A DNA stretch of 63,585 nucleotides, taken from positions 1 to 63,585 of the IMG/VR virus record IMGVR_UViG_3300033997_000235; one strand, given 5' to 3'. Source of the stretch: a virus. Below the pieces are notes generated by a model. It did no database searches. It was given only the letters and a program-made list of their open reading frames with translations, and had not been told where the DNA came from. Within the stretch, counting starts at the first letter, position 1, and each line of letters begins with the position of its first letter. The position numbers and the translations under genes were made by a program. Positions 1,702 to 59,107 of the stretch are shown here, one piece after another.

Positions 1702-4700
1702 TCAGAAATCCCCACCCGCCAGCTTCACGATCCTTTCCGCAATCTGATTCGACTGCCGCTGCAGCGCATCCAGGCGCTGCCGCTTCTGCTCTGGCGTCAT
1801 GCGGGTGTCGCGATACACAGCATCCATCTGATTGCGCACGTTGCCCAGTTGCTTGCGGGCGAAGCCCAACGCCGGCCGGTGGCGCAGTTTCTCGCGGTTC
1901 GCCGCCATCAGTTGCTCGGCCGCGTCGACGCGCCCCTCTTCCCGGTATGACTTGATGGTGCGGTGCAGTTGGTCGGCCTCGCGCATCATGTCGTAGAACT
2001 CAGACTGGTACTTGGTGCTGCGCGGCGAATCGCCCTGGTAGATCACTTTCAGTATAGGGATATCGCCGCTACGGCTGGCCGGGCGCTCTGCGTCGCTCAG
2101 GCTGTTGGCCACCAGGCTCGACATATCCAGCACGTACTGGCCGAGTGTGCCGGTGTAGGCTGCGATCAGGTGGTCGACCTGCTTGGGCGAGAGCCCGGCG
2201 ATCGGCCCGGTCACCTGGCCCAGCGCGCGACCGATGGCGCTGGTGCGCTCGTCGTAGCGCGCTTCAGGCAGTTTCCCCTCGTCGCTCATATCCTCGATCG
2301 GCGAGTCGCGGAAGAAGTTGCGGTTGGCCTGCAGCTCGCGAATCGGCTGGTAGAACTGCGGTACCGGGTTAAAGGCCAGGGTGTCGAAGACGCCACGCGA
2401 TACCGCCTTGGCCAGGTCGCCGCCGTCCTGGGTACCGGTGAGTGCATGCAGGATGCGCTCGGGCACTGTACCGAAGATCAGGCCCAACTCGAACGGCTTG
2501 GGAATGCGGAAGTGCTCGTCGCCCAGAAAGATATGCCAGTGCATGTCTTTGTCCCAATCCATCAGCGCCTGGTACCGCTCGTCATCATCGTTCAGGCCAG
2601 CCAGCATCAGCGAGAAGAGCGCGATATACCCGCCTTTCATGGCCACTTCCTTGGCCAGCAGGGTCTTGTCGCCCTTCACCGCCCGGCCGAGCTTGTACAG
2701 GCCCTGCAGGCGCGCATTCAGGAACGGCACCACGTCGGTGAACCACTGCGCCGCGGCGAAGTTGCCACGCAGGCTGTAGTCCATCAGATCCTTCGCCTCG
2801 AAGCTGGCCTGGCGGCGTGACTTGCCGGCGGCGATCGCGGCTTTATAGGTGCTCAGCCGGTTGGCGTTCTCGACCTTGTCGCCCAGTTCCCGGTACTTCT
2901 GCCAGCCCTTGCCGATCATGGCAGCGGCCTTGGCGGGAGTGTTCACCAAGCTACCCAGGTATGCGTCCTGCTGCGTGCGGGTGAAACCCTTCTTCTCCAG
3001 CGCGCGGCGGATGATCTGCGCCGAGGCCTCTGGGTCAGCCCCGTGCACGTAGCCACCTTGGAAACTGCCGCCGGCAAACATCAGGTCACGGTAATCCTGA
3101 TCCTCGCGCAGGGCGTCGCGCATACCCTTGAGCGAGTCCTTGCCCAGCGTGAAGCCGTCTTTGTTGATCACCCAGGCATGCGCAGCGTCACGGATGAAGT
3201 TGCGCAGGATGAAGTCAGGCGACGCGGTAACGCCCGTGGTGAGGATCCGCTTGAAGGTTCGGCCGATCTTGGTGATCGGGTCATTGAACACGCTGCCTTC
3301 CATGAACTTCAGGCCGCGCAGCAGGCTCTCGTCGTTCACACGGTAGTACTCGCTCTTGCCGTCACGCTGCACCCGCACGATATCATGGTCAGTCGGTGCA
3401 ACGCGGGTCCACAGCTTCTCGAAGCCCTCGCTTTCAGGCTTCATCAGCTGGTTTAACACTTTGATGACGTTGGAGCCGGCCGGCAGGTCCAGCAGATCGG
3501 CGGCCAGCGCCAGGGCCTTGCGATCCTTGCGGATCTGCTGGGCGATCTGGTCGCGGCTGATCAGCACTTGCTGCCAGCGCGGGCTCTCGTCGGTCAGATA
3601 GTCACTGCCCTGCAGGTTATCCACCACCTCCAGCAGTGCCTTGTTCTTCATCGCCGCGTCGATGCGCTTGGTCCAGCCGGCCAGCATGTTGGCCAGCAGG
3701 TCGTTGGTCGGCAGCGTGCCGCCCTTCAGCGCCTTGATTGCCGCGGTCTGGTGAGATAGACCGCGCTTGCTACGCGGTGCAGTGAAGATGCCTTCGCTTT
3801 CGTCCTGGCGGTAGAACGGCACGTAGTAATCCGTCAGCCACTTCGCCCGGGCGTCCTGATCGATCAGGCCGGCTTCTTGTGCCAGGTCGAGAACAGCATC
3901 GTTCACTTGGGCATATTCGCGATACACCTTCTCGAAGAGCTCTTCCTTGCCCTGCCCCATGGCCACCAGTTCGGCAATCTCGGTATCGGTCAGGTTGTTC
4001 TCGCGCCCCTGAGCCTTGAGCAACTGGGCGCGCTTGCCGCCCAACCATGCGAGCCAAGGCGTCAGGTTGTCCGCGCCGAGGTCGCCCAGGATCTCCAGCA
4101 CGCCGCGGGTACCGGCCTTGCCGGACACGATACCGTCGCGCCATTCCGGCGCCGCGTAGTGCAGCACACCATGCATCACGTCGGCGATGCCACTGGCCAT
4201 GCGAGCCGACACATAGCCCTGCTGGTTAACGTCCGTGACGCCCACCGCCTCTTCGGCACGCCGGATGCCGGCCAGGCCATCGAAGATTCCTTCCTCGCTG
4301 CGCACAGACCAGTCTTTCAGCTTCGCCTGCAGGCTACCCAGTGTCAGGTTGCGCACCTGATCCAGCAGGTTCTGTGCCTCACTGCCAGCCAGCCCCAGCT
4401 TGCGCAGCGCCTCGGTATCACGCTGGCTGGCACGGGAATAGCGAATGTCCGGGTCGATCTCGTCGAATGCCCCAGTATTGTTCGTTGCCGACTTCACCTG
4501 GCTGTTGTAGAAGGCGACCCAGGTACCGGTATCGCCCAACTGAATACCGTCATACCCTTCGCGCTCGAGCTTCTGCCGCATCTCGATGGCAGCCTGCGGC
4601 GTATCGATCGCCTGCGAGTCGGCAACGCTCATGCGGTAAGGGTTCTTGATCGACGCGAACAGCGGCATCACCGAGGCGCTACCGGGAGAACCACCGGACA

Positions 4701-7700
4701 CGTTCTCAGCGTGACCACGGGCATGCTGCTGGTCAGCAGTCAGGAAAATGCCCAGCGGGGCGATGCTATGCCCAGTGGACTCGCCTGCCCGCGCCTGATC
4801 GAACACCGAGAACTCGTTCGGCGAACCATGATAGACAACGAGCGGTTCGCCATTACCGTCTGTCAGTTTGGACACATCGCCCGGGTTGACGCGCTCCAGC
4901 GGTCGGCGTACAAAGTCGGTGACCCCGGTATGGGCCGATGTGGCGCGTTCCCCAGCAATGGGGGTATCCCGCGGAGATACTGCCGGGGTTTCTTCCCTCC
5001 CCTCCCTGATCTCTGGATCTACAAGCATCGCGTTATAGAACTGCGCGCTGCCATCCTTCAGCCTCTGCACAGTAAAAATTGCAACAAGCTCAGTGTCGGC
5101 AACACTAACTTTGGCCAGCAGTTTCTCAAACGCGGCAACGTTCGGTTCTGCAGATGGATCCTTGGGCGCCCTTGACGACGAATAGACCGCTCGCTTGAAA
5201 GCGCTTCGCAGGTCTTCGGCCATCAGCAATTTCGCGGGATCAGCACCTTCACTTATAAACTTGTTGACGCCTTTGTTTCGGCTGATGCTCACCTCGCCGA
5301 TATCGTCATTCATCAACGGAACACGACTTTTAACGATGGCGTCCAGCGCCTGCTTCGCCTTTGCGCGCAGTTCCTTGATGCTCAGATTGCGCCAGCCATC
5401 GGGAACCCTGATCCTGACCGGCGACAGATTCGCCAGGCGAGCTTCCGCAGCCACAGCCTGCCAGTCACCGAACCAGCGCTTGAAGTTCTCGCCGCGGGCC
5501 TGATGCCACTGCTTCTGCGTCAGTTTCGACGGCTTCCCGTTTGGCGCCAGCAGGCGACCTTGCTCGTCGACGATCTCAGCGCCCATGCCTGAGCGTCCAT
5601 CACGCGAGAACGCCTCCCGAGTACCAGCACGGCGCCGGCCGTTCTCGATATAGGCCCGGGCATTGGCCAGCAGCCCCTGAATATCACCCTCGGTCCAACG
5701 CATGTTGAAGCCGATCGAGCGCAGCGCGTTGCGCATGGCGGTCACCAGGCGCGGCCAGAACGCTTGCTGCTGGATGCTGCCGGTACCAGCCATATCAGCC
5801 AGCACTTCCTCCATGGCCACGGCCGGCTTGTAATTGAACCGGCGCACCAAGGCGTCAGCCTGCGACTTCATGTCGGCATTGCCGTTGTAGATGCTCATGA
5901 GCAGCGGCGTCAGGCGCTGGCCATAGGCGCCCTGCAGGCCGGCGTGACCCAGCACCTCATGCTGCAGCACGAACGCCGCATGCCGGGCGTCGCGCAGATT
6001 GTCGGCAACCAGATACACCTGGCCATCGGCGAAGATGCCTTCGACGTCGAAAGCACCATCGCGCTCGACCTGGCGGCGCTGACGGTCTGGCAGATCCTTG
6101 ATCGACTGCACCACCTTCACATCCGGCGCGTTCTGCCAGGCGCCAGTCAGCACCTTCATAGCAATGCGCAGTTGGCCAGCACGGGCGCCCTGGCCTTGTT
6201 CTGGAGCACGGCGGTAGCTGTTGCGCGAGTACATGACCACCGCACCGTCATCATCAACGCGGGTTTGTACGGTGGAAAACAGCTTGTCGAACGCATCACT
6301 GACCGGCCCCTGCTCGTCAGGGGTCAGATACGGGTACCGATCAGCAGAACGGACAAACTGTTCCAGAGTGCGGACATTCGCCAGGTAGTCGTTGCGATAC
6401 CCCTGGTCGGCCAGCTTGGCAATCACATAGGTTTCAAATGCCCGGGCGCCGCGCTCGATAATCTGCGACCAGTATGCATCCGGCGACTTGTCCAGATTGG
6501 CAGACCTGCGCGCCATGGGCGACTGATCCAGCACGTCGACCAGTTCAGCGAAAGCACGCTCTACCTCTGGCCGCACACCAGTAGGATGACGTGGATCGAC
6601 CTGCCAGTTATCCGGATTGAAGTACTCGGCATCTGGGTTTTGCTCGCGGTAGCGCTGCAGTTTGGCCAGGGACATAGGCGAACTACGTTGCGTCTTGTGG
6701 ACGTACAGCGGTTCCGGTCGGTAGGTAATGAAGTTGTTATTGCGGTACGCCTGCTGGGCATTGACGCCCCGCTCCATCGGCACCTCACCGCCACGCTGGC
6801 GAGCAAAGTAGTTATCAAGCGCATGGAACCATTCATGCGCAAGCGATCCAGCGCCTCGCGTCTTGGTCATATTGATGACGATATTGCTCGGCTCGAAATG
6901 CGCACTGGCACGGCCACGACCACGCGAACCGAAGCCGATACCGAGACGCCCGCCAAGGCTCAATGCCTTTGGCGGCACACCTACCACCTCAGCCAGATCC
7001 ATGAACGAATCGTAGGCCTGATTCAGCAGCCCCTGCCGATCAGCACCACCAGCGCCCTGCGAAACCCAGTTGCCGAACTCGACGCCACGGAAGCCGAACA
7101 CTTCAAGGAACTGCTCAGGCGTGATATCGGCGCCGTTCCGGTAATTGCGCCCGGTACGCTCGTCGTTGGTATCGCGGCGCATGTCGGCCTTGGTGACGTT
7201 GTCGCGGTTCTTTACGGCATCCCAAGCAGTGACCAACTCACCGTGCTGGTCTGCCAGGAAAGCGCGCGCAGCCTTAGCATCGCCGAAGGTCTTCAGTCGA
7301 CGCATCTCTTTGTCCCCGTCCTTGGCAATGAACACCTCGCCAGAACTGCGATCGGTGTAGATGGAGAACTTCATGCGCGACTCTGGAGCCGAGCCCAGAT
7401 TGATCGCAGAGCGGATATCGGAGAGAGCGTCGGCGACATTCTTCTTTCCGAAGAAGTGCTTCCTGCTGCCGTCGATCTCTACCTCGACCCACGAACCGGG
7501 CACCATGGTGCCGCCATCGTTGTACTTGCCGCTGGCGACGCCTACTCGGCCGATACGCCCCCACTGGCCACGGTCAATCCCCATCAGCAATTCGATCTTG
7601 TCGGCGATCGGACGCAAGCCAGGGCTGAATTCGCGCATCTTCGGCACAGTTGCATCAGCACCAATGTCTGCAAGGTTCTTCAGAATCTCGCGCGCTGCCT

Positions 7701-10700
7701 TCACCTTGTCGACCCAGACGCGCACCTTGTACGGGACGCGAGGCTTGGCAGGAATAATGTCCCGCACAACCTGATATGACGCGGCGTGAAACTGATCCTT
7801 GATGCGGTTGATCTCGTCCTTCGGCCAAAGCTGGCTCAGGGTGCTGTTGGCGATAGCAGCATCATCCATGCTATCCAGGCGCTCGCGCACCCCGCGCAGT
7901 TCGTCCTTCCTGGCACCGCCAAGCTTCTCGCCGGCGTCTTCTATGACTTTAGGCTGACTGCTTGCCGCAGGCGCCTGAACTGGAGAGGCCTGCGCCTCGC
8001 TCTCGGCACCGTACTCTTCCCGCAGCGCCTCCCAGGCCTGGCGGTTCACGCCCTCCGGGCTGTCGCTGTTCAGTTCGTTGTACTGCTCGAAGGTGATGCC
8101 GGCCGAGGCGCGGTCTACGTCAGCCTCGTATTGATCCTGCAGGCGCCGAATGGCCTGGTCGTAGCCTGGCGACCCTTTCTTGATGCCGGCGGCCTTGGCC
8201 TGGCGTTCTATATAGCGCTTGCGCGGGGTCGCCAGGATCTCGGGCAGATCCTGCGCCTGGTCATTCGCTTGAGCGGGTACCGCCTCTTCACTGGCCGCTG
8301 GTTGATCAGCAGCAGGCTGCTCGCTCAGTGCACGCTGTCCGTAGGCGGCCGGTGATGCGTTCTCGCTGGCTGCTGGCTTGACCTGCTCGATTTTATTCTG
8401 TATCGGGCGCACAACATAGCTGGCAATATCGACAGGCTCAGAAACCATTTCACCAAACTCACGGCGTGCATCTTCCTCGCCAAGTTGGCGGAAACCAGTC
8501 CGAACAATCTCAACGTCATCAGAGCGCAGCAATACTTCAGACTCTGCAGCATTACCCTCGTATATAGGAACAATGCCAACTCCTGGCTCCACGTTGATCT
8601 CTTGCAGTTCAAACTGGCCGCTGCTGAAGCCGCCAAAGGAAATTGCGTGCTTTCGGTCGGTAGTTGTCGGGATAAGCGGGCGCTCTGCAAAGCGGGTTGC
8701 GCGCTCATTCAGGGCATCAGTATTGCTGTTAGACTGGCGGCCATTTGCGCGATACAGGGTAATCGCATTCTTGGTGCGGTTGGAGTCGGCCGCGCCCATC
8801 AGCGTAGCGGATAGGCCGGCAGGCATATCAAATGCCTCCCTGCCTTTCGCGTCGTTGTAGTCGCGAACGGCTGCGCGCTGCTCTTCACTCAAAAAAACGG
8901 ACTTTGCTAGATCCTCAAACGAAATATCCGGCCGTTCAGCCAAAACGGGCTCTCGCGCCACGTTATCTGCCGCATCTGGCACAGCAGGCGTATCGCCTGC
9001 GGCTCGGTCATTAACAGGCCCTGGCCGACTATCAGCACCCTGCACCTCCTGAGACGCCTGATCAGTGAACGAACTGGGGAACTCACGCGCCAGCGGCAGC
9101 AGCTCGGCCATCGGCGCATTGAGGCGGATAACCTTCACATCGCCGCCGGCCTCGCGTTGCGCCAGCCATTGGTGATGGCCATCGAGAACATAGCCATCGC
9201 CGGACACCAGAATGGAGCGCTCGGTACCTTCCCGTGCAGCGGCACGCCCTACCCGCTCCGGGCTGAACTCAGCTTGGGTCGGGCGCAGGCTGCGAGCAGG
9301 CACGGTCTGCTCTTCATGAGTGACGCCGCGGGCGTTCATGAAATTAACCATGGCCCCGCGATGGTCAGCGCGAATCTGCGGCATGTCCGCGCGCGGCACG
9401 CCAAGGCTGCCGGACTGTTGGTTGAATCCGACCCAGCCACTACCGAGATCGTCACCCTGCAGGTCACGCGCGAAAGTCACGCTGCTGTCACGGCCATTGT
9501 CACGTGACATGTCCGTGACAGGTCGCCGTCCTACCGGCGCTTGCCGTTCCATGCCAGGCCCACCAATAGGCCGCACCTGCGCACCAGGCTCAACGAAAGG
9601 CGCAGTCGCACCGCGCTGCGCATTACCCTGGCTGTCCACCACCATGGTGCTAGGCGCCGGCAGGCCGAGCGGCGCAGGCGGTGGCACCGGCTCACGCGGC
9701 ACAGCAACCGCCCATCCGCCCTCATGCGGGACGATGATCGGGCTTTCACCCTCGCGCTGCAGTTGGTTGAACAGGCCAAGTAGGCGCACGTCTCGTTCAC
9801 CACGGAATGGGCGCCCGTTCTTCTGCACGCGGATTTCGAAGTTTGGATCGCCGGCCACGGGTGTGGGCTGCACCTGCTCGACCGACATAGGCCCAGTGTC
9901 CGACTCGACCGTCGGCAGCGGAAGCGGCTGCTCGATCTGCTCCACCTGTTGCGGGCCAGTGTCCGACTCAACAGTGGCCAGCGGCGGCTGCTCCGGCAGT
10001 TCGTCGACCTGCGGCACCAGTTCATCCAGGCCGCGAGCGTCCTGCGGGTCGAAACCCTGCTGCGCCCAGGTGTCGAGTTGCCGCCGTGCAGCGGCAAGGG
10101 CCTCTGCCTCTGGCACCTCCACCATCGTCTGCAGGTCTTGGTCATAGCGGAAGAATCGCAGATTGCCGTTCTCGTCCAGATCGGCCGGGAACAGCTCCTG
10201 AGCAATCGCCAGTTGCTGGCTGATCGGCTCGTATCGGCCACCAGGCTGGGTGTCAGGCGCACCACTGAGCATCGACTGACGCACGGCATCCTGCACCGGG
10301 GTCTGGCTTCCAGTGGGAGCGCCGTCGACGGCAGTGGCAGCAGCGGCAGACAGCGGGCCAGCAGCAGGGTCCAGCCCCATCTGCTCAGACGGGCGGCGTG
10401 CAACGTTGACCGCGCCGCCAATCGCAGAGCCCGCCAGCGTGCCTTCCACTGCAGCGCGCGGCACACCCTCCATCAGCGGCTTCTGCTCGGCCCAGTTCTG
10501 CAGCATCTGCTCTTGAACGGACTGCGGCAGCTCTTCCAGCACGCCCTCGGTCAGCGCGCCGCCGGCAACACGCCGAGCAAGACCGGGCGTTTGGCCAGCC
10601 ACCTGGCCGACACCACCAGCCAGCGCACTCTCGACGTCGATCAAGCCCATGCGCTGCGCAAGCCGCGCACCGAAGCCGCTCAACGCAGCGCCAGCCACAC

Positions 10701-54081: not shown

Positions 54082-54329
54082 GCCTGACCAGCAAAGCCAA
54101 GACCTTCCACGTCTGCGTTGCCGTCAGTTATGTGATTGCCCGGGCACGCCGACCGCGCGCCCTGGATGACCTGCTGAGCGAGCGCGGTACCGGTCGCCCG
54201 ATTCCTGGCGAAGAGGTTCTGGCCATCGCCCGTGACTGCGCAGAACGCGGCTTCACCATGATCCCGAGTTGTGACCATCACGGTGATAACGGCGCTTGCC
54301 TGGGCCATCCGGTGGAGGCCTCGGTATGA
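54078..54329 (+). CDS. Hypothetical 83-aa protein
   Basis: 4-nt overlaps with both neighbours. Confidence 0.5.
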
Positions 54330-56041
54330 CCGCTCAAGCCAGCATCACCGACGGCGAGCTCGTCGATACCAGCGCTTTCTTCGCCCCCATGTCCGCCGAC
54401 CTTGTCGACAGCCTGATCGGCGAATACGGCCAGATGCGCCAACGTATTGAACGCCTGGCCGGTGCAGTGCGGGCCGAGAATGCCGGCACGGTCTTGCACT
54501 ACTTCATCGAGGGCAATGTGCAGGATCAACGCTACAGCATGCCTACCACGGTCGATGCATTGTTCCGTGTTGAGGGCGCCATCGCCCAACTCAACGCCGA
54601 CTTCTGGAACCGCGCCCTACGCCTGACTGACGTGATGGACTACATGCCCCAAGCACGTCGCGACGAGTGGCACGACCAGATCCGCAACCCAGAGGGTCGC
54701 AAGGCGAGCCGTCACACTGGCGAGAAGGACATGCCAGCTCTTCCCGAGTTCGAGGAAGCCACCGTGCGCTCGACCCTCGCTGGCCTGCTGCACAATCGTT
54801 CTCAGTTCCTGGCCGAGCGTGTCGACGGCATCTTCCGCGCACTGAGCCGTGCCCATGTGACGAACCAGCCCCAAGGCTTTGGTAAGCGCATGATCATCGC
54901 CAACGTGCACGGTTACCAGACTGCCGGTCACATCAACGACCTGCGCTGTGTGATCGCCAAGTTCATGGGCCGCGACGAGCCGAAGCATGGCGCGACCGAC
55001 CCGGTGATCAAGGCAGGTGGCCGCCAGAATGGTGAGTGGATGCCCGTCGACGGCGGTGCGCTGCGCATCCGCGTCTATGGCGGCGTCGGTACCGCGCACC
55101 TTGAGGTGCACCCAGACATGGCCTGGCGCCTGAACGCCATTCTTGCCAGCCTGTACCCGCTCGCCATTCCTGCCGAGTTCCGCACCAAACCGAAGCGCCA
55201 GAAGAAGATCAAGGACTTCGACCTGTTCGATAGGCCGTTGCCGTTCGCAGTAGTGCAGTTGCTGGCGGAAATGCGCGAGGTGCGCGAGCGGGTTGAACCG
55301 GCATGGCCGGAGCGCTATCGCGCAGTTCCGAACGCACGCGAGTTCGGCTATGGCGAGAAAGATAAAGCAGCCGTGGCCGAGGCCGAGAAGGTGCTGATGG
55401 CCATCGGCGCCGTGAAGGCCGGCAGGCATTGGCAGTTCGACTACGACCCGACCGAGGTGCTGGATCTGGTGGTTTGCTCTGGCTGCATCCCCGACCAGAA
55501 GTCGCACCAGTTCTACCCCACCCCGCAAGCAGTAGCCGAGTTCGCCGTCAGCGTCGCCGAGATCGACGACCACCATGGAGTACTGGAGCCGAGCGCCGGA
55601 ATCGGCGGTCTGGCCGACTACCTGCCCAAGCTACAGACCACCTGCGTGGAAATCAGCCCACTGCACTGCCAGGTGCTGGAGGCCAAGGGTTTCAAGGTCG
55701 TAGAGGCTGATTTTCTCAAGTGGGCACCCGGCCAGCCTGCGGCAGACCGCATCGTAATGAACCCACCGTTCAGCGAGGGACGCTGGCAGGCACACCTGCT
55801 GGCTGCCGCCGACATGCTCAAGCCTGACGGCCGCCTGGTCGCCATCCTCCCGGCCAGCGCCAAGGGCAAAGACCTGCTGCCAGGCTGGAGCATGGAGTGG
55901 GCACGCACCTTCGAGAACGAGTTCGCCGGCACCAGCGTTTCCGTGGTGGTGCTGATTGCCCAGCGCGCCAGTGCGAAAGATCAACTCGACATATTCAACG
56001 ATGCCCTGCTCGATGCCGAGCAGCAGGAAGGTGCTGAATGA
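54326..56041 (+). CDS. N6-adenine DNA methyltransferase with an N-terminal DUF4942-like domain
   Basis: Motif I LEPSAGIGGL followed by motif IV NPPF. The N-terminal half resembles DUF4942 from memory. Confidence 0.75.
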   Translation: MTAQASITDGELVDTSAFFAPMSADLVDSLIGEYGQMRQRIERLAGAVRAENAGTVLHYFIEGNVQDQRYSMPTTVDALFRVEGAIAQLNADFWNRALRLTDVMDYMPQARRDEWHDQIRNPEGRKASRHTGEKDMPALPEFEEATVRSTLAGLLHNRSQFLAERVDGIFRALSRAHVTNQPQGFGKRMIIANVHGYQTAGHINDLRCVIAKFMGRDEPKHGATDPVIKAGGRQNGEWMPVDGGALRIRVYGGVGTAHLEVHPDMAWRLNAILASLYPLAIPAEFRTKPKRQKKIKDFDLFDRPLPFAVVQLLAEMREVRERVEPAWPERYRAVPNAREFGYGEKDKAAVAEAEKVLMAIGAVKAGRHWQFDYDPTEVLDLVVCSGCIPDQKSHQFYPTPQAVAEFAVSVAEIDDHHGVLEPSAGIGGLADYLPKLQTTCVEISPLHCQVLEAKGFKVVEADFLKWAPGQPAADRIVMNPPFSEGRWQAHLLAAADMLKPDGRLVAILPASAKGKDLLPGWSMEWARTFENEFAGTSVSVVVLIAQRASAKDQLDIFNDALLDAEQQEGAE

Positions 56042-56838
56042 CGGGTATCGTCCTGCCAGATTCGCGCATCGTCGTGCAGTTCAGCTGCGGCGCCGCCTCG
56101 GCAGTGGCAGGCAAGCTGGCGTTGGCACAGTACGGCGCGACCCACGACGTTCAGTTCATCAATGCCTTCCTGGCAAATGAACACGTCGACAACCGCCGTT
56201 TCCTGGCCGACTGCCAGGTGTGGCTCGGTCGCAGCATCACCGTACTGGCTGACGAGAAGTACGGCGCGGACATCATCCAAGTGTTCCGCCGCGAGCGCTA
56301 CATGAAAGGCCCGCATGGCGCCCCCTGCACCAAGCTGTTGAAGCGGCGCCAGTTGGATGCCTGGAAACAACCAGGCGACGTGATGGTGCTCGGCTATACC
56401 GCCGAAGAGGCCGATCGCCTCGACGACTTTCGCGAGCGCAACCCCGACCGCCCAGTCATCGCGCCGCTGATCGACCTCGGGTTGGGCAAAGAAGACTGCA
56501 AGGCACTGATCATCAGGGCAGGCATCGCCCTGCCCATCACCTACCAGATGGGCTACGAGAACGCCAACTGCATCGGCTGCGTGAAAGGCGGCGAAGGCTA
56601 CTGGCGCGCCATCCGCGTCGACTTCCCCGAGCAGTTCGAGGCGCTGTGCCAGGTGCAGGACGAGCTCGGCCCGGGCTCATGGTTCCTGCGCTATCGCTCG
56701 GGCCCACGCGCCGGCGAGCGCTTCCCTCTGCGTGACCTGCCAGAAGGGCCAATCCGCCGCAATGAAGCAATCCCGGCCTGCAGTTTCTTCTGCGAAATGG
56801 CCGAGGCCGACATTAACCAAAAGGAATCCGCCGAATGA
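56038..56838 (+). CDS. PAPS-reductase / PP-loop family protein with a Cys cluster
   Basis: VVQFSCGAASAV sits in place of the SGGKDS PP-loop. NCIGCVKGGEGYW and PACSFFCE cysteines. ATGA coupling to both methyltransferase genes. Confidence 0.65.
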   Translation: MTGIVLPDSRIVVQFSCGAASAVAGKLALAQYGATHDVQFINAFLANEHVDNRRFLADCQVWLGRSITVLADEKYGADIIQVFRRERYMKGPHGAPCTKLLKRRQLDAWKQPGDVMVLGYTAEEADRLDDFRERNPDRPVIAPLIDLGLGKEDCKALIIRAGIALPITYQMGYENANCIGCVKGGEGYWRAIRVDFPEQFEALCQVQDELGPGSWFLRYRSGPRAGERFPLRDLPEGPIRRNEAIPACSFFCEMAEADINQKESAE

Positions 56839-58643
56839 TCACCCAGACCCTGCACCACTTCCATTTCTGCTGCGGCCTGGGCGGCGGCGCCAAGGGCTTC
56901 AACCGCGCACGCCCGGTAGTCGGCAACGTACAAGCGCGCTGGGAATGCCTGGGCGGCATCGACGTTGATCCTGCTGGCCTGCGCGACTTCGAGCAGTTGG
57001 CCGGCGTGCCTGGCACCCTGATGGACCTATTCACCCGTGACCAGTACATCCGCTTTCACGGGAAAGAGCCGCCTGCTGGTTGGCGCGAGGCCTCGGCCGA
57101 CGACGTGCGCCGCGCTGCGCAGAACAAGCGCCCCGACGCGGTGTTCATCAGCAGCCCGTGCAAGGGCGCCAGCGGCCTGCTCTCCGAGAAAATGAGCCAG
57201 ACCCCGAAGTACCAGGCGCTGAACGAGCTGACCCTGCGCTGCATCTGGCTGATGGGCGAGGCCTGGAAGAATGACCCGGTGCCGCTCATCGTCTTCGAGA
57301 ACGTGCCGCGCCTGGCCACCCGCGGCCGGCACCTGCTGGACCAGATCAACAGCCTGCTCAGCTTCTACGGCTACGCCGTGGCGGAAACAACCCACGACTG
57401 CGGCGAGTTGGGCGGCCTGGCACAGAGCCGCAAGCGCTTCCTGCTTGTGGCGCGCCATGTCGAGAAGGTGCCGCCATTCCTGTACGAGCCGGAGAAGAAG
57501 AGCCTGCGCGCCGTCGGCGATATCCTCGGCCGCATGCCGCTGCCAGGCGATATCGACGCCGCCGGCCCGATGCACCGCGTGCCGTCGCTGCAATGGCAGA
57601 CCTGGGTGCGCCTCGCCCTGGTGCGTGCCGGCAGCGACTGGCGCAGCCTCAACGAGCTGGCGATCGAGGATGGACGCCTTCGCGACCTGATCATTGTGCC
57701 GGAGTACCGCAGCGGATACCTCGGCGTGCACGGCTGGGACGATACCAGCGGCACCATCGCCGGCCGCAGCAGCCCAACCAACGGCGCGTTCTCGGTCGCC
57801 GATCCACGGTACCGCCAGGCGGCCAACTGGAATCATGGCCAGCAGTTCGGCGTCATCCGCTGGGACGAGTCCTCGCCGACCATCCCCGGGCAGACCATGC
57901 CAGGTCAGGGCACCTTCAGCGTTGCCGATCCCCGGTACCACAACTGGCACAAGGGCGCGAGCAGCCGCAAGCTGCACGTCGGCAAGTGGGACGGCCACAC
58001 CGGTACCGTGACCGGCTCGCAGCAGGTGGCCAGCGGCGCCCTGTCGATCGCCGACCCTCGCCCGAACTGGAACCGCCACAGCGGCAACTACCGCGTGGTT
58101 CCGTTCGACAAGCCGGCCGGCACCATCATCGCCGGCGGCAAGGGTGTACAAGGTGGCCAACAGTCGGTAGCAGATCCGCGCATCCTGCACCGTGGCAAGG
58201 GTGACAACTACCTGACCGGAGGGCACTACGGCGTTATCCCGTTCGACCAGAACTGCGGCGCCATCGCCGCCAGCTCGCGCTACGACAGCGGTCGCTTCAG
58301 CGTCGCAGACCCGCGCATCCCGGCAGCCAATGACCGCCTGACCTGCATCATTCGCAGCCTCGACGGCACCTGGCACCGTCCCTTCACCACCTTGGAAAAG
58401 GCAGCACTGCAGAGCCTGGTCGACCCGGAAGAGCAGCTGATTCTGGATGGCCTGAGCGATAAGGACTGGAGCGAGCGAATCGGCAACGCCGTGCCACCGC
58501 ATGCGGCAGAAGCGATCGCCCACGTTATGGGCACCACCCTGCTGCTGGCCGCTGCCGGCGAAACCTTCATGCTCAGCAATATGCCGGTGTGGGTGCGCCC
58601 GGTAGCGGTCGGGCTGAGCGTCGCCGAGGTGCCGCAGGCATGA
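56835..58643 (+). CDS. DNA (cytosine-5) methyltransferase with five tandem TRD-like repeats
   Basis: Motif I FCCGLGGGAKGF, motif IV SPCKGAS, motif VI ENV, motif VIII QSRKRFLLV, motif IX FTTLEKAALQS, motif X GNAVPP. Five units of (W/F)D..GT(I/V).G....S(V/I)ADPR lie between motifs VIII and IX. Confidence 0.8.
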   Translation: MITQTLHHFHFCCGLGGGAKGFNRARPVVGNVQARWECLGGIDVDPAGLRDFEQLAGVPGTLMDLFTRDQYIRFHGKEPPAGWREASADDVRRAAQNKRPDAVFISSPCKGASGLLSEKMSQTPKYQALNELTLRCIWLMGEAWKNDPVPLIVFENVPRLATRGRHLLDQINSLLSFYGYAVAETTHDCGELGGLAQSRKRFLLVARHVEKVPPFLYEPEKKSLRAVGDILGRMPLPGDIDAAGPMHRVPSLQWQTWVRLALVRAGSDWRSLNELAIEDGRLRDLIIVPEYRSGYLGVHGWDDTSGTIAGRSSPTNGAFSVADPRYRQAANWNHGQQFGVIRWDESSPTIPGQTMPGQGTFSVADPRYHNWHKGASSRKLHVGKWDGHTGTVTGSQQVASGALSIADPRPNWNRHSGNYRVVPFDKPAGTIIAGGKGVQGGQQSVADPRILHRGKGDNYLTGGHYGVIPFDQNCGAIAASSRYDSGRFSVADPRIPAANDRLTCIIRSLDGTWHRPFTTLEKAALQSLVDPEEQLILDGLSDKDWSERIGNAVPPHAAEAIAHVMGTTLLLAAAGETFMLSNMPVWVRPVAVGLSVAEVPQA

Positions 58644-59107
58644 AACGCCGCAAGCCCAACAACAACCAGCTCCGGCGCGAGAGGGCTGCAGCCGCAACGC
58701 TGCGCCGGTATCACACCGCCCTGGTTCACATCGAGCCGGCCCAGCGCCAGATCGTCGTCAGCCTCAAGCACCTGCTGCGCGTGAAGGATGAAAACCGCAT
58801 CGCCCACGCAATGGCCGAGCACCCTTATCAGTGGACGATCTACTTTGCGGCGTTCTGCAGCTCACGCGAGACCGGCGAATACCTCAAGGGCGGCGAAGTC
58901 GTGCTGCCGGGGCGCCACAAGCTGGACAACCTCTTTGAAGGCATCGAGGACGAGAAGGCCAAGATCATGGCCGGCTGCAATCCAAAGCACGTAATCGGCT
59001 GCGGCTTTATTGCCGTGCCGCACGATGCCGATATCAGCGAAGAGCTAGCCGCAGAGGTATTCACCAGAGCCGGAGCCTGGAATCAGGCTAAGCAGGTGAG
59101 CGCATGA
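58640..59107 (+). CDS. Hypothetical protein (155 aa), last gene coupled to the methylase cluster
   Basis: ATGA overlap with the C5 methyltransferase stop. Confidence 0.55.
   Translation: MKRRKPNNNQLRRERAAAATLRRYHTALVHIEPAQRQIVVSLKHLLRVKDENRIAHAMAEHPYQWTIYFAAFCSSRETGEYLKGGEVVLPGRHKLDNLFEGIEDEKAKIMAGCNPKHVIGCGFIAVPHDADISEELAAEVFTRAGAWNQAKQVSA

Follow-up and report, generated by a model that had tools for sequence, protein, structure and literature searches.

The gene at 56835..58643 of the window (the whole 63,585-nt stretch of IMG/VR virus record IMGVR_UViG_3300033997_000235) raises the question whether a single phage C5 DNA cytosine methyltransferase could recognize several different target sequences. 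A first-pass annotation had noted five consecutive 40-45-aa units between motif VIII and motif IX of the encoded protein. By analogy with the multispecific enzymes of Bacillus phages, it had proposed that the enzyme could methylate up to five different sequences. We therefore asked whether the repeats are real, whether they are related to target-recognition domains (TRDs), how they vary among relatives and which reading fits best.

Repeats in the variable region of the methyltransferase

The five repeats reported in the first-pass annotation were confirmed. The features of the locus are summarized in Table 1. The protein belongs to the C5 cytosine methyltransferase superfamily (Pfam PF00145), and its conserved motifs occur in the standard order and are intact. 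The residues P108, C109, E155, N156, V157, R199 and R201 were invariant in 64 diverse relatives. Foldseek gave E-values of 5e-14 to MET1/DNMT1 and 7e-10 to M.HaeIII, and M.HhaI was matched with a TMt of 0.6. A single-sequence search of the PDB found no relative, while a profile search aligned the protein with DNMT1 chains.

Table 1. Features of the methyltransferase gene and its upstream neighbours (all on the + strand)
Position	Feature	Residues and motifs	Sequence	Support
54296..56041	N6-adenine-type DNA methyltransferase; first gene of the apparent three-gene modification operon	DUF4942 plus NPPF motif		Pfam DUF4942, E 1e-20; weak N6_Mtase hit; phrog_6263 DNA methyltransferase, E 6e-212; NPPF visible in the translation
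56038..56838	PAPS-reductase-like gene between the two methylases; 4-nt overlaps at both ends			phrog_424, E 3.7e-48; no Pfam or NCBIfam hit
56835..58643	C5 DNA cytosine methyltransferase gene; start overlaps the stop of the upstream gene by 4 nt (ATGA)	602 aa		PF00145, 41.8 bits (cut-off 22); Foldseek to DNMT1, MET1 and M.HaeIII, E 1e-10 to 5e-14
56835..57572	Catalytic part	aa 1-246; motifs I (FCCGLGG, aa 11), IV (SSPCKG, aa 106; catalytic Cys109), VI (ENV, aa 155) and VIII (QSRKRF, aa 197)		Motif positions; invariant residues in 64 relatives; AF2 pLDDT above 90
57573..57704	Start of the variable region	aa 247-290; GSDWRSL element shared with DNMT1 (GSDWRDLP)		Profile alignment to DNMT1 chains
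57705..57809	Unit 1, a first-position type	aa 291-325; ADPR at aa 322	YRSGYLGVHGWDDTSGTIAGRSSPTNGAFSVADPR	Unit HMM; type is first in 7 of 8 proteins; kept in 117 of 120 close homologs
57810..57935	Unit 2	aa 326-367; ADPR at aa 364	YRQAANWNHGQQFGVIRWDESSPTIPGQTMPGQGTFSVADPR	Unit HMM; present in 120 of 120 close homologs; a different type at this position in LKA5, phiCTX and others
57936..58061	Unit 3, the cassette missing from the 4-unit relatives	aa 368-409; ADPR at aa 406	YHNWHKGASSRKLHVGKWDGHTGTVTGSQQVASGALSIADPR	Clean 42-aa indel; carried by only 7 of 120 close homologs; same type is unit 5 of 6 in LKA5 and unit 4 of 5 in the relative L016
58062..58181	Unit 4	aa 410-449; ADPR at aa 446	PNWNRHSGNYRVVPFDKPAGTIIAGGKGVQGGQQSVADPR	Unit HMM; replaced by a different type (VRHNNVYRVV...GGQCIADPR) in the relative P0016, the rest of which is about 95% identical
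58182..58316	Unit 5, a last-position type	aa 450-494; ADPR at aa 491	ILHRGKGDNYLTGGHYGVIPFDQNCGAIAASSRYDSGRFSVADPR	pLDDT 78-89 for aa 461-500; best matches in other proteins are always their last unit
58317..58643	Tail, motifs IX and X, C-terminal helices and stop codon	motif IX (FTTLEKAALQS, aa 517), motif X (GNAVPP, aa 550)	IPAANDRLTCIIRSLDGTWHRP (tail)	Profile alignments to motifs IX-X of M.HaeIII and DNMT1; pLDDT above 90

Cutting after each ADPR gave units of 35, 42, 42, 40 and 45 aa, which together span 57705-58316 and lie a few codons either side of the 57720-58334 given in the first-pass annotation. Among 20,000 shuffles of the protein, only two contained two or more ADPR. All ten local alignments between units were better than shuffled controls, with z = 7.7-15.1 and 14-17 identical residues. 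The skeleton (W/F)D-x3-(G/P)T(I/V)-x-G-x7-9-S(V/I)ADPR proposed earlier fits units 1-3 exactly. Unit 4 has one extra residue (T-I-I-A-G), and unit 5 has A-I and A where the others have T-I/V and G.

Tandem Repeats Finder detected no repeat in the DNA, and the five ADPR codon blocks used different synonymous codons. Therefore, the repeats are old and are held at the protein level.

Relationship of the repeats to target-recognition domains

Each repeat is homologous to the conserved core of the single TRD of monospecific enzymes. A profile of the unit matched the single TRD core (YGRMEWDKPSPTITTQCFGFGNGRF) of M_MAGs_10, an experimentally validated monospecific m5C methylase (PMC11954522), at E 5e-6. 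The DNMT1 segment AGLYGRLEWDGFFST aligned to the start of the unit, although below significance.

The columns defining the unit types were 3-9 and 19-28, on either side of the T-V dipeptide, while columns 10-16 varied even within a type. This arrangement matches Loops 1 and 2 and the TL dipeptide of M.HhaI and M.HaeIII (PMC2790894). Of the five units, units 1-4 carry T-I or T-V followed by Gly, while unit 5 carries A-I with no following Gly. In the whole family the first position of this dipeptide was T in 62% and A in 24% of the units.

A closed beta-propeller or WD40-like domain was also considered because of the period of about 40 aa and the G-V-x-x-W-D element. This was rejected, since no WD40 or other repeat family was detected in Pfam, unit number ranges from 1 to 12 and differs between near-identical proteins, and no confident packed repeat domain was predicted by AlphaFold.

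Distribution of the family and exchange of units

The protein belongs to a very large, mostly proteobacterial (pro)phage family with thousands of 90%-identity clusters across Alpha-, Beta- and Gammaproteobacteria and Desulfobacterota. Four-unit versions sit in large numbers of P. aeruginosa genomes and in phages phiCTX, H66 and LKA5. The unit number was 0-11 in the 150 best representatives and 6-12 in a second sample, and it explained protein length (length = 363 + 46.6 n, r = 0.98). Five units is near the mode. The first-pass annotation had regarded the enzyme, together with the N6A enzyme, as an unusually wide anti-restriction repertoire for a proteobacterial prophage. This claim was wrong, because the family is common. 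A search for related loci with the close alignment, which used narrow patterns, returned only Pseudomonas and Stutzerimonas relatives. A 51-aa query of unit 3 in a large protein index, whose word index does not work at this length, returned one fragment only.

Near-identical relatives differed by clean loss or exchange of one unit. Relatives at about 83-91% identity lacked exactly unit 3, and P0016 showed the exchange of unit 4. P0008 and H66 are examples of 4-unit relatives lacking unit 3. The named phages formed a mosaic, also including PS3 and PBC5. With letters denoting unit types, the window enzyme was arranged as a-b1-e-f-z, LKA5 as a-b2-c-d-e-z, phiCTX (orf41) as a-b2-c-g-z and Achromobacter CF418P1 as a-b-g-d-x-z. 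This is the cassette behaviour expected of independent specificity modules.

Single-linkage clustering chained 192 units into one group, and average linkage was therefore used. The 795 units from 151 proteins fell into 359 types. The top types occurred in 33, 28 and 27 different proteins of 50% identity or less, once per protein, at index positions 1-10 and with 18-24 different neighbours. Same-type pairs within a protein numbered 7, against 14.7 +/- 3.8 expected (P = 0.018). This avoidance of duplicates is modest and depends on a clustering threshold.

The first and last unit types were locked to their positions, and the last-position units formed a restricted class with a distinctive x-D-N-G loop. 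Some internal types kept their relative order (A before B in 11 of 12 proteins). These observations fit descent with differential loss, or structural capping, as well as free shuffling. However, internal types also occurred in the last position, the one that AlphaFold docks (types 94, 173 and 144 were last in 2, 4 and 2 proteins). Among 121 close homologs, the units were as conserved as the catalytic core (diversity 0.04-0.09 against 0.08-0.10), while the C-terminal end reached 0.32.

Structure prediction

In the AlphaFold model only unit 5 was docked with confidence, and units 1-4 had pLDDT of only 40-57. In a construct of the core plus unit 3, only the first strand of the unit was confident (pLDDT 78) and the rest scored 41-42. 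Both runs used alignments in which units of different types were mixed, so these low values neither support nor exclude docking of the internal units.

Proposed function

The interpretation given in the first-pass annotation was partly supported. We suggest that the gene encodes a modular, probably multispecific C5 DNA methyltransferase of a temperate F116/H66-like phage, with a probability of about 0.6. In this view, one catalytic core, formed by motifs I-VIII at the N-terminus and motifs IX-X at the C-terminus, is combined with a string of five mini target-recognition modules. Each module would be a copy of the conserved heart of an ordinary TRD, comprising a strand (Y-G/R-V-x-x-W), the P-x-x-T-V/I element corresponding to the TL dipeptide, a loop ending in G and a closing S-V-A-D-P-R strand. 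The type-defining residues, just before the first strand and in the loop after T-V, would be the equivalents of recognition Loops 1 and 2. One module at a time may sit against the catalytic domain, read its own short DNA motif and let the target cytosine flip into the active site, so that up to five motif classes would be methylated. Made from an early operon together with an adenine methylase, the enzyme would protect replicating phage DNA from several host restriction systems. New repertoires would arise by loss, gain or exchange of whole modules at the conserved ADPR joints.

The analysis itself established the repeats, their homology to a TRD core, the intact catalytic core, the cassette variation and purifying selection on the units. 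In contrast, methyl transfer to C5 of cytosine, the activity of internal units as TRDs, their different specificities and their alternate docking are inferred. No methylation data were found for this protein or any relative, nor any paper describing the family, and a paper on an Antarctic Pseudomonas prophage concerned an unrelated m4C enzyme. In addition, a 40-aa module is small for an independent fold.

The main alternative, considered unlikely, is an enzyme of single specificity in which only unit 5, next to motif IX, is the working TRD. The internal units would then be a spacer, a non-specific DNA-binding or processivity arm, or inactive pseudo-TRDs left by past duplications. The confident docking of unit 5 only, the restricted class of last-position units and the weak model of unit 3 next to the core agree with this reading. 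However, internal units are as conserved as the catalytic core, their type-specific residues are kept across enzymes of 50% identity or less and sit where recognition loops lie, and internal types also occur as last units. Relics or spacers would not be expected to be kept once per protein and exchanged as whole cassettes.

A composite reader is less likely still. Here the units would pack into one extended DNA-binding domain (an open beta-sheet array with specialised end caps), giving one long or complex target, or relaxed and nearly non-specific cytosine methylation. The cap-like behaviour of the first and last types, the partly conserved order and the probably too small size of each unit for folding alone are in its favour. 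It is opposed by the range of 1 to 12 units, which differ in number between near-identical proteins, by the highly diverse neighbours of a given type and by the absence of confident inter-unit packing in the AlphaFold model. We also infer that a long target would be of little use to a phage protecting itself against 4-6-bp restriction sites. A role outside DNA reading, such as binding host or phage proteins, acting as an anti-restriction decoy or targeting the enzyme to the replisome or capsid, is very unlikely, since it has no direct evidence beyond the lack of a confident structure for units 1-4, while the unit is homologous to the DNA-reading core of ordinary C5 methylases and sits exactly where the TRD sits.

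A broader reading, which remains tentative, is that this family has turned the TRD core into an open-ended cassette array, with hundreds of module types, up to 12 per polypeptide, exchanged at a fixed ADPR joint and each docking in turn on one catalytic core. Single enzymes would then methylate up to a dozen unrelated motifs, a far larger and mechanistically more regular version of the Bacillus phage strategy and a natural parts library for programmable m5C writers. If each unit is an active TRD, packing many specificities into one methylase is a widespread phage counter-defence and not a curiosity of a few Bacillus phages. It would explain unassigned m5C motifs in Pseudomonas and other lysogens, and would reopen the unsolved structural question of how several TRDs share one catalytic core. 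The 5-unit, 4-unit and swapped-unit enzymes offer natural single-cassette variants for mapping module to motif, and the array gives a regular scaffold for engineering cytosine methylases with chosen sets of targets.

Comparison with known enzymes

The multispecific C5 methyltransferases of Bacillus temperate phages (M.SPRI, M.Phi3TI, M.Rho11sI, M.H2I and SPbeta MtbP) also carry several contiguous 40-50-aa TRDs between motifs VIII and IX of one catalytic core. Each of their TRDs has a P-x-T-(L/I/V)-T element and a Gly, while here unit 5 carries A-I with no following Gly. Each TRD reportedly confers its own target specificity, as shown by deletion or mutation (classical Trautner-group papers: PMC450048, PMC1171429, PMC457134). 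Their relatives differ by which TRDs they carry and share the last one; in the sequences analyzed here EPAFTVNTIDRHGVAIG was last in SPR, rho11s and phi3T. These enzymes have an anti-restriction role (PMC12707154). However, the analogy does not extend to descent, as no common ancestry beyond the C5 superfamily was detectable. BLASTP against M.SPRI gave a best E of 0.043, at motifs IX-X only, and the unit HMM gave no significant hit in M.SPRI, M.Rho11sI or M.Phi3TI. In the present family the modules are overt sequence repeats with a fixed S-V-A-D-P-R joint, number up to 12 rather than about 2-4, and occur in Proteobacteria and Desulfobacterota; their specificities are only inferred.

Monospecific C5 methyltransferases with a TRD of the type G-x-W-R-D-L-P ... 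Y-G-R-x-x-W-D-x-P-S-P-T-I-T-T, such as M_MAGs_10 and DNMT1/MET1, share the helper element (GSDWRSL here), the TRD core recognized by the unit profile and the fold. They have one copy of the core, followed directly by H-P-x-x-x-R and motif IX, while here the core is repeated five times and followed by an extra tail of about 22 aa before motif IX.

In Type I HsdS and Type IIG/III enzymes, specificity repertoires also change through recombination of whole recognition modules at conserved joints (TRD exchange or "domain movement"). These are adenine methylases with separate S subunits or two fixed TRD slots, and they do not have an open-ended tandem array inside a single C5 enzyme.

Tandem units in the predicted C5 cytosine methyltransferase

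The ORF encoding 602 aa carried the C5-methylase motifs in the standard order (see the table below). The tetrapeptide ADPR was found at exactly aa 322, 364, 406, 446 and 491, as stated in the first-pass annotation, and only 2 of 20,000 shuffles of the protein had even two ADPR. Cutting after each ADPR yielded five units of 35, 42, 42, 40 and 45 aa, and every pair of units aligned far better than shuffled controls (z = 7.7-15.1). The repeats noted in the initial reading of the sequence were confirmed. The skeleton proposed there fitted units 1-3 exactly, while unit 4 had one extra residue and unit 5 displayed A-I/A in place of T-I/G. No repeat was detected at the DNA level, and the ADPR codon blocks differed in synonymous positions, therefore indicating that the duplication is old and is maintained by selection on the protein.

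Coordinates of the methyltransferase gene, its motifs and other features
Feature	Position (nt)	Strand	Position (aa)	Remarks
C5 methyltransferase ORF	56835..58643	+		602 aa
Motif I			11	FCCGLGG
Motif IV			106	SSPCKG, catalytic Cys109
Motif VI			155	ENV
Motif VIII			197	QSRKRF
Five tandem units	57705-58316		291-494	
Motif IX			517	FTTLE
Motif X			550	GNAV
Hypervariable stretches after the conserved Trp	57750-57770, 57880-57900 and equivalent stretches			family-wide unit columns 10-16
N6-adenine-type methylase	54296..56041			
PAPS-reductase-like gene	56038..56838	+		phrog_424, E 4e-48
ORF with nucleotide-metabolism PHROG hits	61425-62198	+		
Large ORF	1702-11379	-		3,225 aa
ORF antisense to the methylase gene	57027-58697	-		556 aa
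Six-unit paralog, locus L007 (Metapseudomonas otitidis DSM 17224)	4001-5896			coordinates of L007
Six-unit paralog, locus L008 (Metapseudomonas otitidis DSM 17224)	4001-5893			coordinates of L008

Pfam recognized only the centre of the catalytic domain (PF00145, aa 90-232, 41.8 bits), and NCBIfam gave only a sub-threshold dcm hit. However, a profile of 64 relatives reached DNMT1 (E 3e-15) and M.HaeIII (E 4e-11) in the PDB, and an AlphaFold2 model (pTM 0.72) matched MET1, DNMT1, ZMET2 and M.HaeIII by Foldseek (E 5e-14 to 7e-10). The catalytic residues were invariant in the 64-sequence alignment.

Homology of the units to a target-recognition domain

A 35-position profile was built from the units, with the consensus h-G-x-Y-G-V-x-x-W-(D/E)-x-P-a-g-T-V-T-G-x-x-x-p-x-n-G-a-x-S-V-A-D-P-R. 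This profile identified the single TRD core YGRMEWDKPSPTITTQCFGFGNGRF of M_MAGs_10, a monospecific m5C methylase that has been validated (PMC11954522), just upstream of motif IX of that protein (E 5e-6). The DNMT1 segment AGLYGRLEWDGFFST aligned to the start of the unit, but below significance. Each unit is thus a copy of the conserved heart of an ordinary TRD, including, in units 1-4, the T-V or T-I equivalent of the TL dipeptide.

Distribution of the family

The large protein index contained more than 7,000 clusters of the family at 90% identity, and the 50%-identity library contained 1,225 clusters at E <= 1e-3 and 495 at E <= 1e-30. Among the best 150 representatives, unit counts ranged from 0 to 11, with a mode of 5-7. 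In a second sample, which was biased towards high scores, the counts ranged from 6 to 12 and protein length followed 363 + 46.6 x units (r = 0.98). Named members belonged to Pseudomonas, Stutzerimonas, Sphingopyxis, Sphingomonas, Shinella, Oceanibaculum, Massilia, Solidesulfovibrio and Humidesulfovibrio, and named phages included phiCTX (orf41), H66, LKA5, Dobby, Marinobacter PS3, Achromobacter CF418P1 and Sinorhizobium PBC5. Five units are therefore ordinary for this family, and the first-pass annotation was wrong in regarding the enzyme as contributing to an unusually wide repertoire for a proteobacterial prophage. The 4-unit form is common in P. aeruginosa genomes, with single clusters seen on up to 93 contigs.

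Some long members of the family (830-1200 aa; the related proteins P0125, P0168, P0170, P0188, P0195, P0207, P0258 and P0296) carried an intein with Hint_2, Intein_splicing and LAGLIDADG homing-endonuclease domains. The intein was inserted at the catalytic motif IV, and the match of these proteins to the window protein resumed at aa 106 (SSPCKG).

Exchange of units among relatives

Among the 120 closest homologs, 113 had four ADPR units and seven had five. The alignment showed that the 4-unit proteins (about 83-91% identical) lacked exactly unit 3, with breakpoints in the conserved S-V-A-D-P-R. The relative P0016 carried a different unit type in place of unit 4, while the rest of the protein was about 95% identical. 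When unit types were designated by letters, the named phages formed a mosaic. The window protein was arranged as a-b1-e-f-z, the common 4-unit form as a-b1-f-z, P0016 as a-b1-d-z, LKA5 as a-b2-c-d-e-z, phiCTX as a-b2-c-g-z, Marinobacter PS3 as a-b-c-z and Achromobacter CF418P1 as a-b-g-d-x-z, while Sinorhizobium PBC5 had eight units. The genome of Metapseudomonas otitidis DSM 17224 carried two 6-unit paralogs on different contigs (loci L007 and L008), which differed in the type of unit 2 (NYGQQYGVLDW... versus QYQQYGVRRW...) and shared the other five types.

A total of 795 units from 151 proteins were clustered into 359 types (average linkage on 20 variable positions, identity of 50% or more). 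The commonest types were detected in 33, 28 and 27 different representatives, once in each, at index positions 1 to 10 and with 18-24 different neighbours. Pairs of the same type within one protein were about half as frequent as under random assortment (7 against 14.7 +/- 3.8, P = 0.018). However, the order was not free for all types. Type A preceded type B in 11 of 12 proteins, whereas A/E was 4:4 and C/E was 1:6. The pattern is therefore a mixture of inheritance with cassette loss or gain and some rearrangement. The first and last positions were held by dedicated types, and a parallel was found in the Bacillus enzymes that we retrieved, since SPR, rho11s and phi3T all end with the same TRD.

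Position of type-specific residues and conservation of the units

Within-type conservation minus between-type conservation peaked in columns 3-9 and 19-28, which flank the T-V dipeptide. M.HhaI and M.HaeIII read DNA with two loops of the TRD, of which Loop 2 starts at the conserved TL dipeptide and Loop 1 lies N-terminal to it (PMC2790894). The units therefore keep their type-specific residues where DNA-reading residues are expected. In contrast, columns 10-16 varied even within a type, although they were among the positions used for clustering. Within a given type, the four to five residues after the conserved Trp (W-D-x-x-x-G) were hypervariable while the loop after T-V was fixed, and this short stretch seems free of constraint or under diversifying pressure.

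Among the window protein and its 120 close homologs, amino-acid diversity was 0.04-0.09 in the units, 0.08-0.10 in the catalytic parts and 0.32 in the last 12 residues. The units are not a loosely constrained spacer.

Structure prediction

In the full-length model, the core displayed pLDDT above 90, unit 5 scored 78-89 and units 1-4 scored only 40-57. A construct of core, unit 3 and tail was also modelled and scored 89.6 overall, but within the unit only the first strand was confident (78) and the rest scored 41-42. Both alignments mixed unit types in the same columns, which blurs the signal as to whether internal units can dock.

Interpretation

The best-supported reading is a multispecific methylase built from TRD cassettes, which would work like the Bacillus phage enzymes but arose independently. 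The independent origin is indicated by the pairwise similarity to M.SPRI, which was not significant (E 0.043), and by the unit profile, which did not detect the Bacillus TRDs. That the modules are TRD-like, conserved and exchangeable rests on the comparisons presented here, while methylation by this enzyme and the step to each module reading a different motif are inferred, and we put the latter at a probability of about 0.6. The proposal in the first-pass annotation of a multispecific enzyme by analogy with the Bacillus phages is partly supported, being plausible and strengthened by comparative evidence but not demonstrated. The main alternative, that only the last, docked unit is the working TRD, is unlikely but survives best. 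A composite reading domain is less likely still, and a role unrelated to DNA reading is the least likely.

Full-text literature searches found no description of this family or of multi-TRD C5 methylases outside Bacillus phages, although REBASE and many subscription papers lay outside these searches and prior notice cannot be excluded. A 2025 review of restriction-modification biology attributes the arraying of multiple TRDs in one polypeptide to Bacillus temperate phages only (PMC12707154), and a 2022 paper says the same (PMC8936443). The principle is already known from the Bacillus phages, while the different lineage, the regular repeat architecture and the much higher module count are, as far as these searches show, new.

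Genomic context

The window is an F116/H66/LKA5-like prophage, and the methylase gene is located in an early recombination region together with a RecE-like exonuclease, RdgC and NdpA. It follows the N6-adenine-type methylase and the PAPS-reductase-like gene, the latter without a Pfam or NCBIfam hit. The junctions between these genes showed 4-nt overlaps. The PAPS-reductase-like gene, located between the adenine and the cytosine methylase, had ATGA overlaps at both ends, suggesting a translationally coupled three-gene DNA-modification operon. Downstream of the methylase cluster, an ORF with PHROG hits to nucleoside 2-deoxyribosyltransferase (E 7.5e-36) and MazG-like pyrophosphatase families may represent another nucleotide or DNA-modification function. 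The ORF running antisense across almost the whole methylase gene is most likely a stop-poor shadow frame in DNA with 62-66% G+C and not a gene. In addition, the single ORF of 3,225 aa on the minus strand is very large for a phage of this size.
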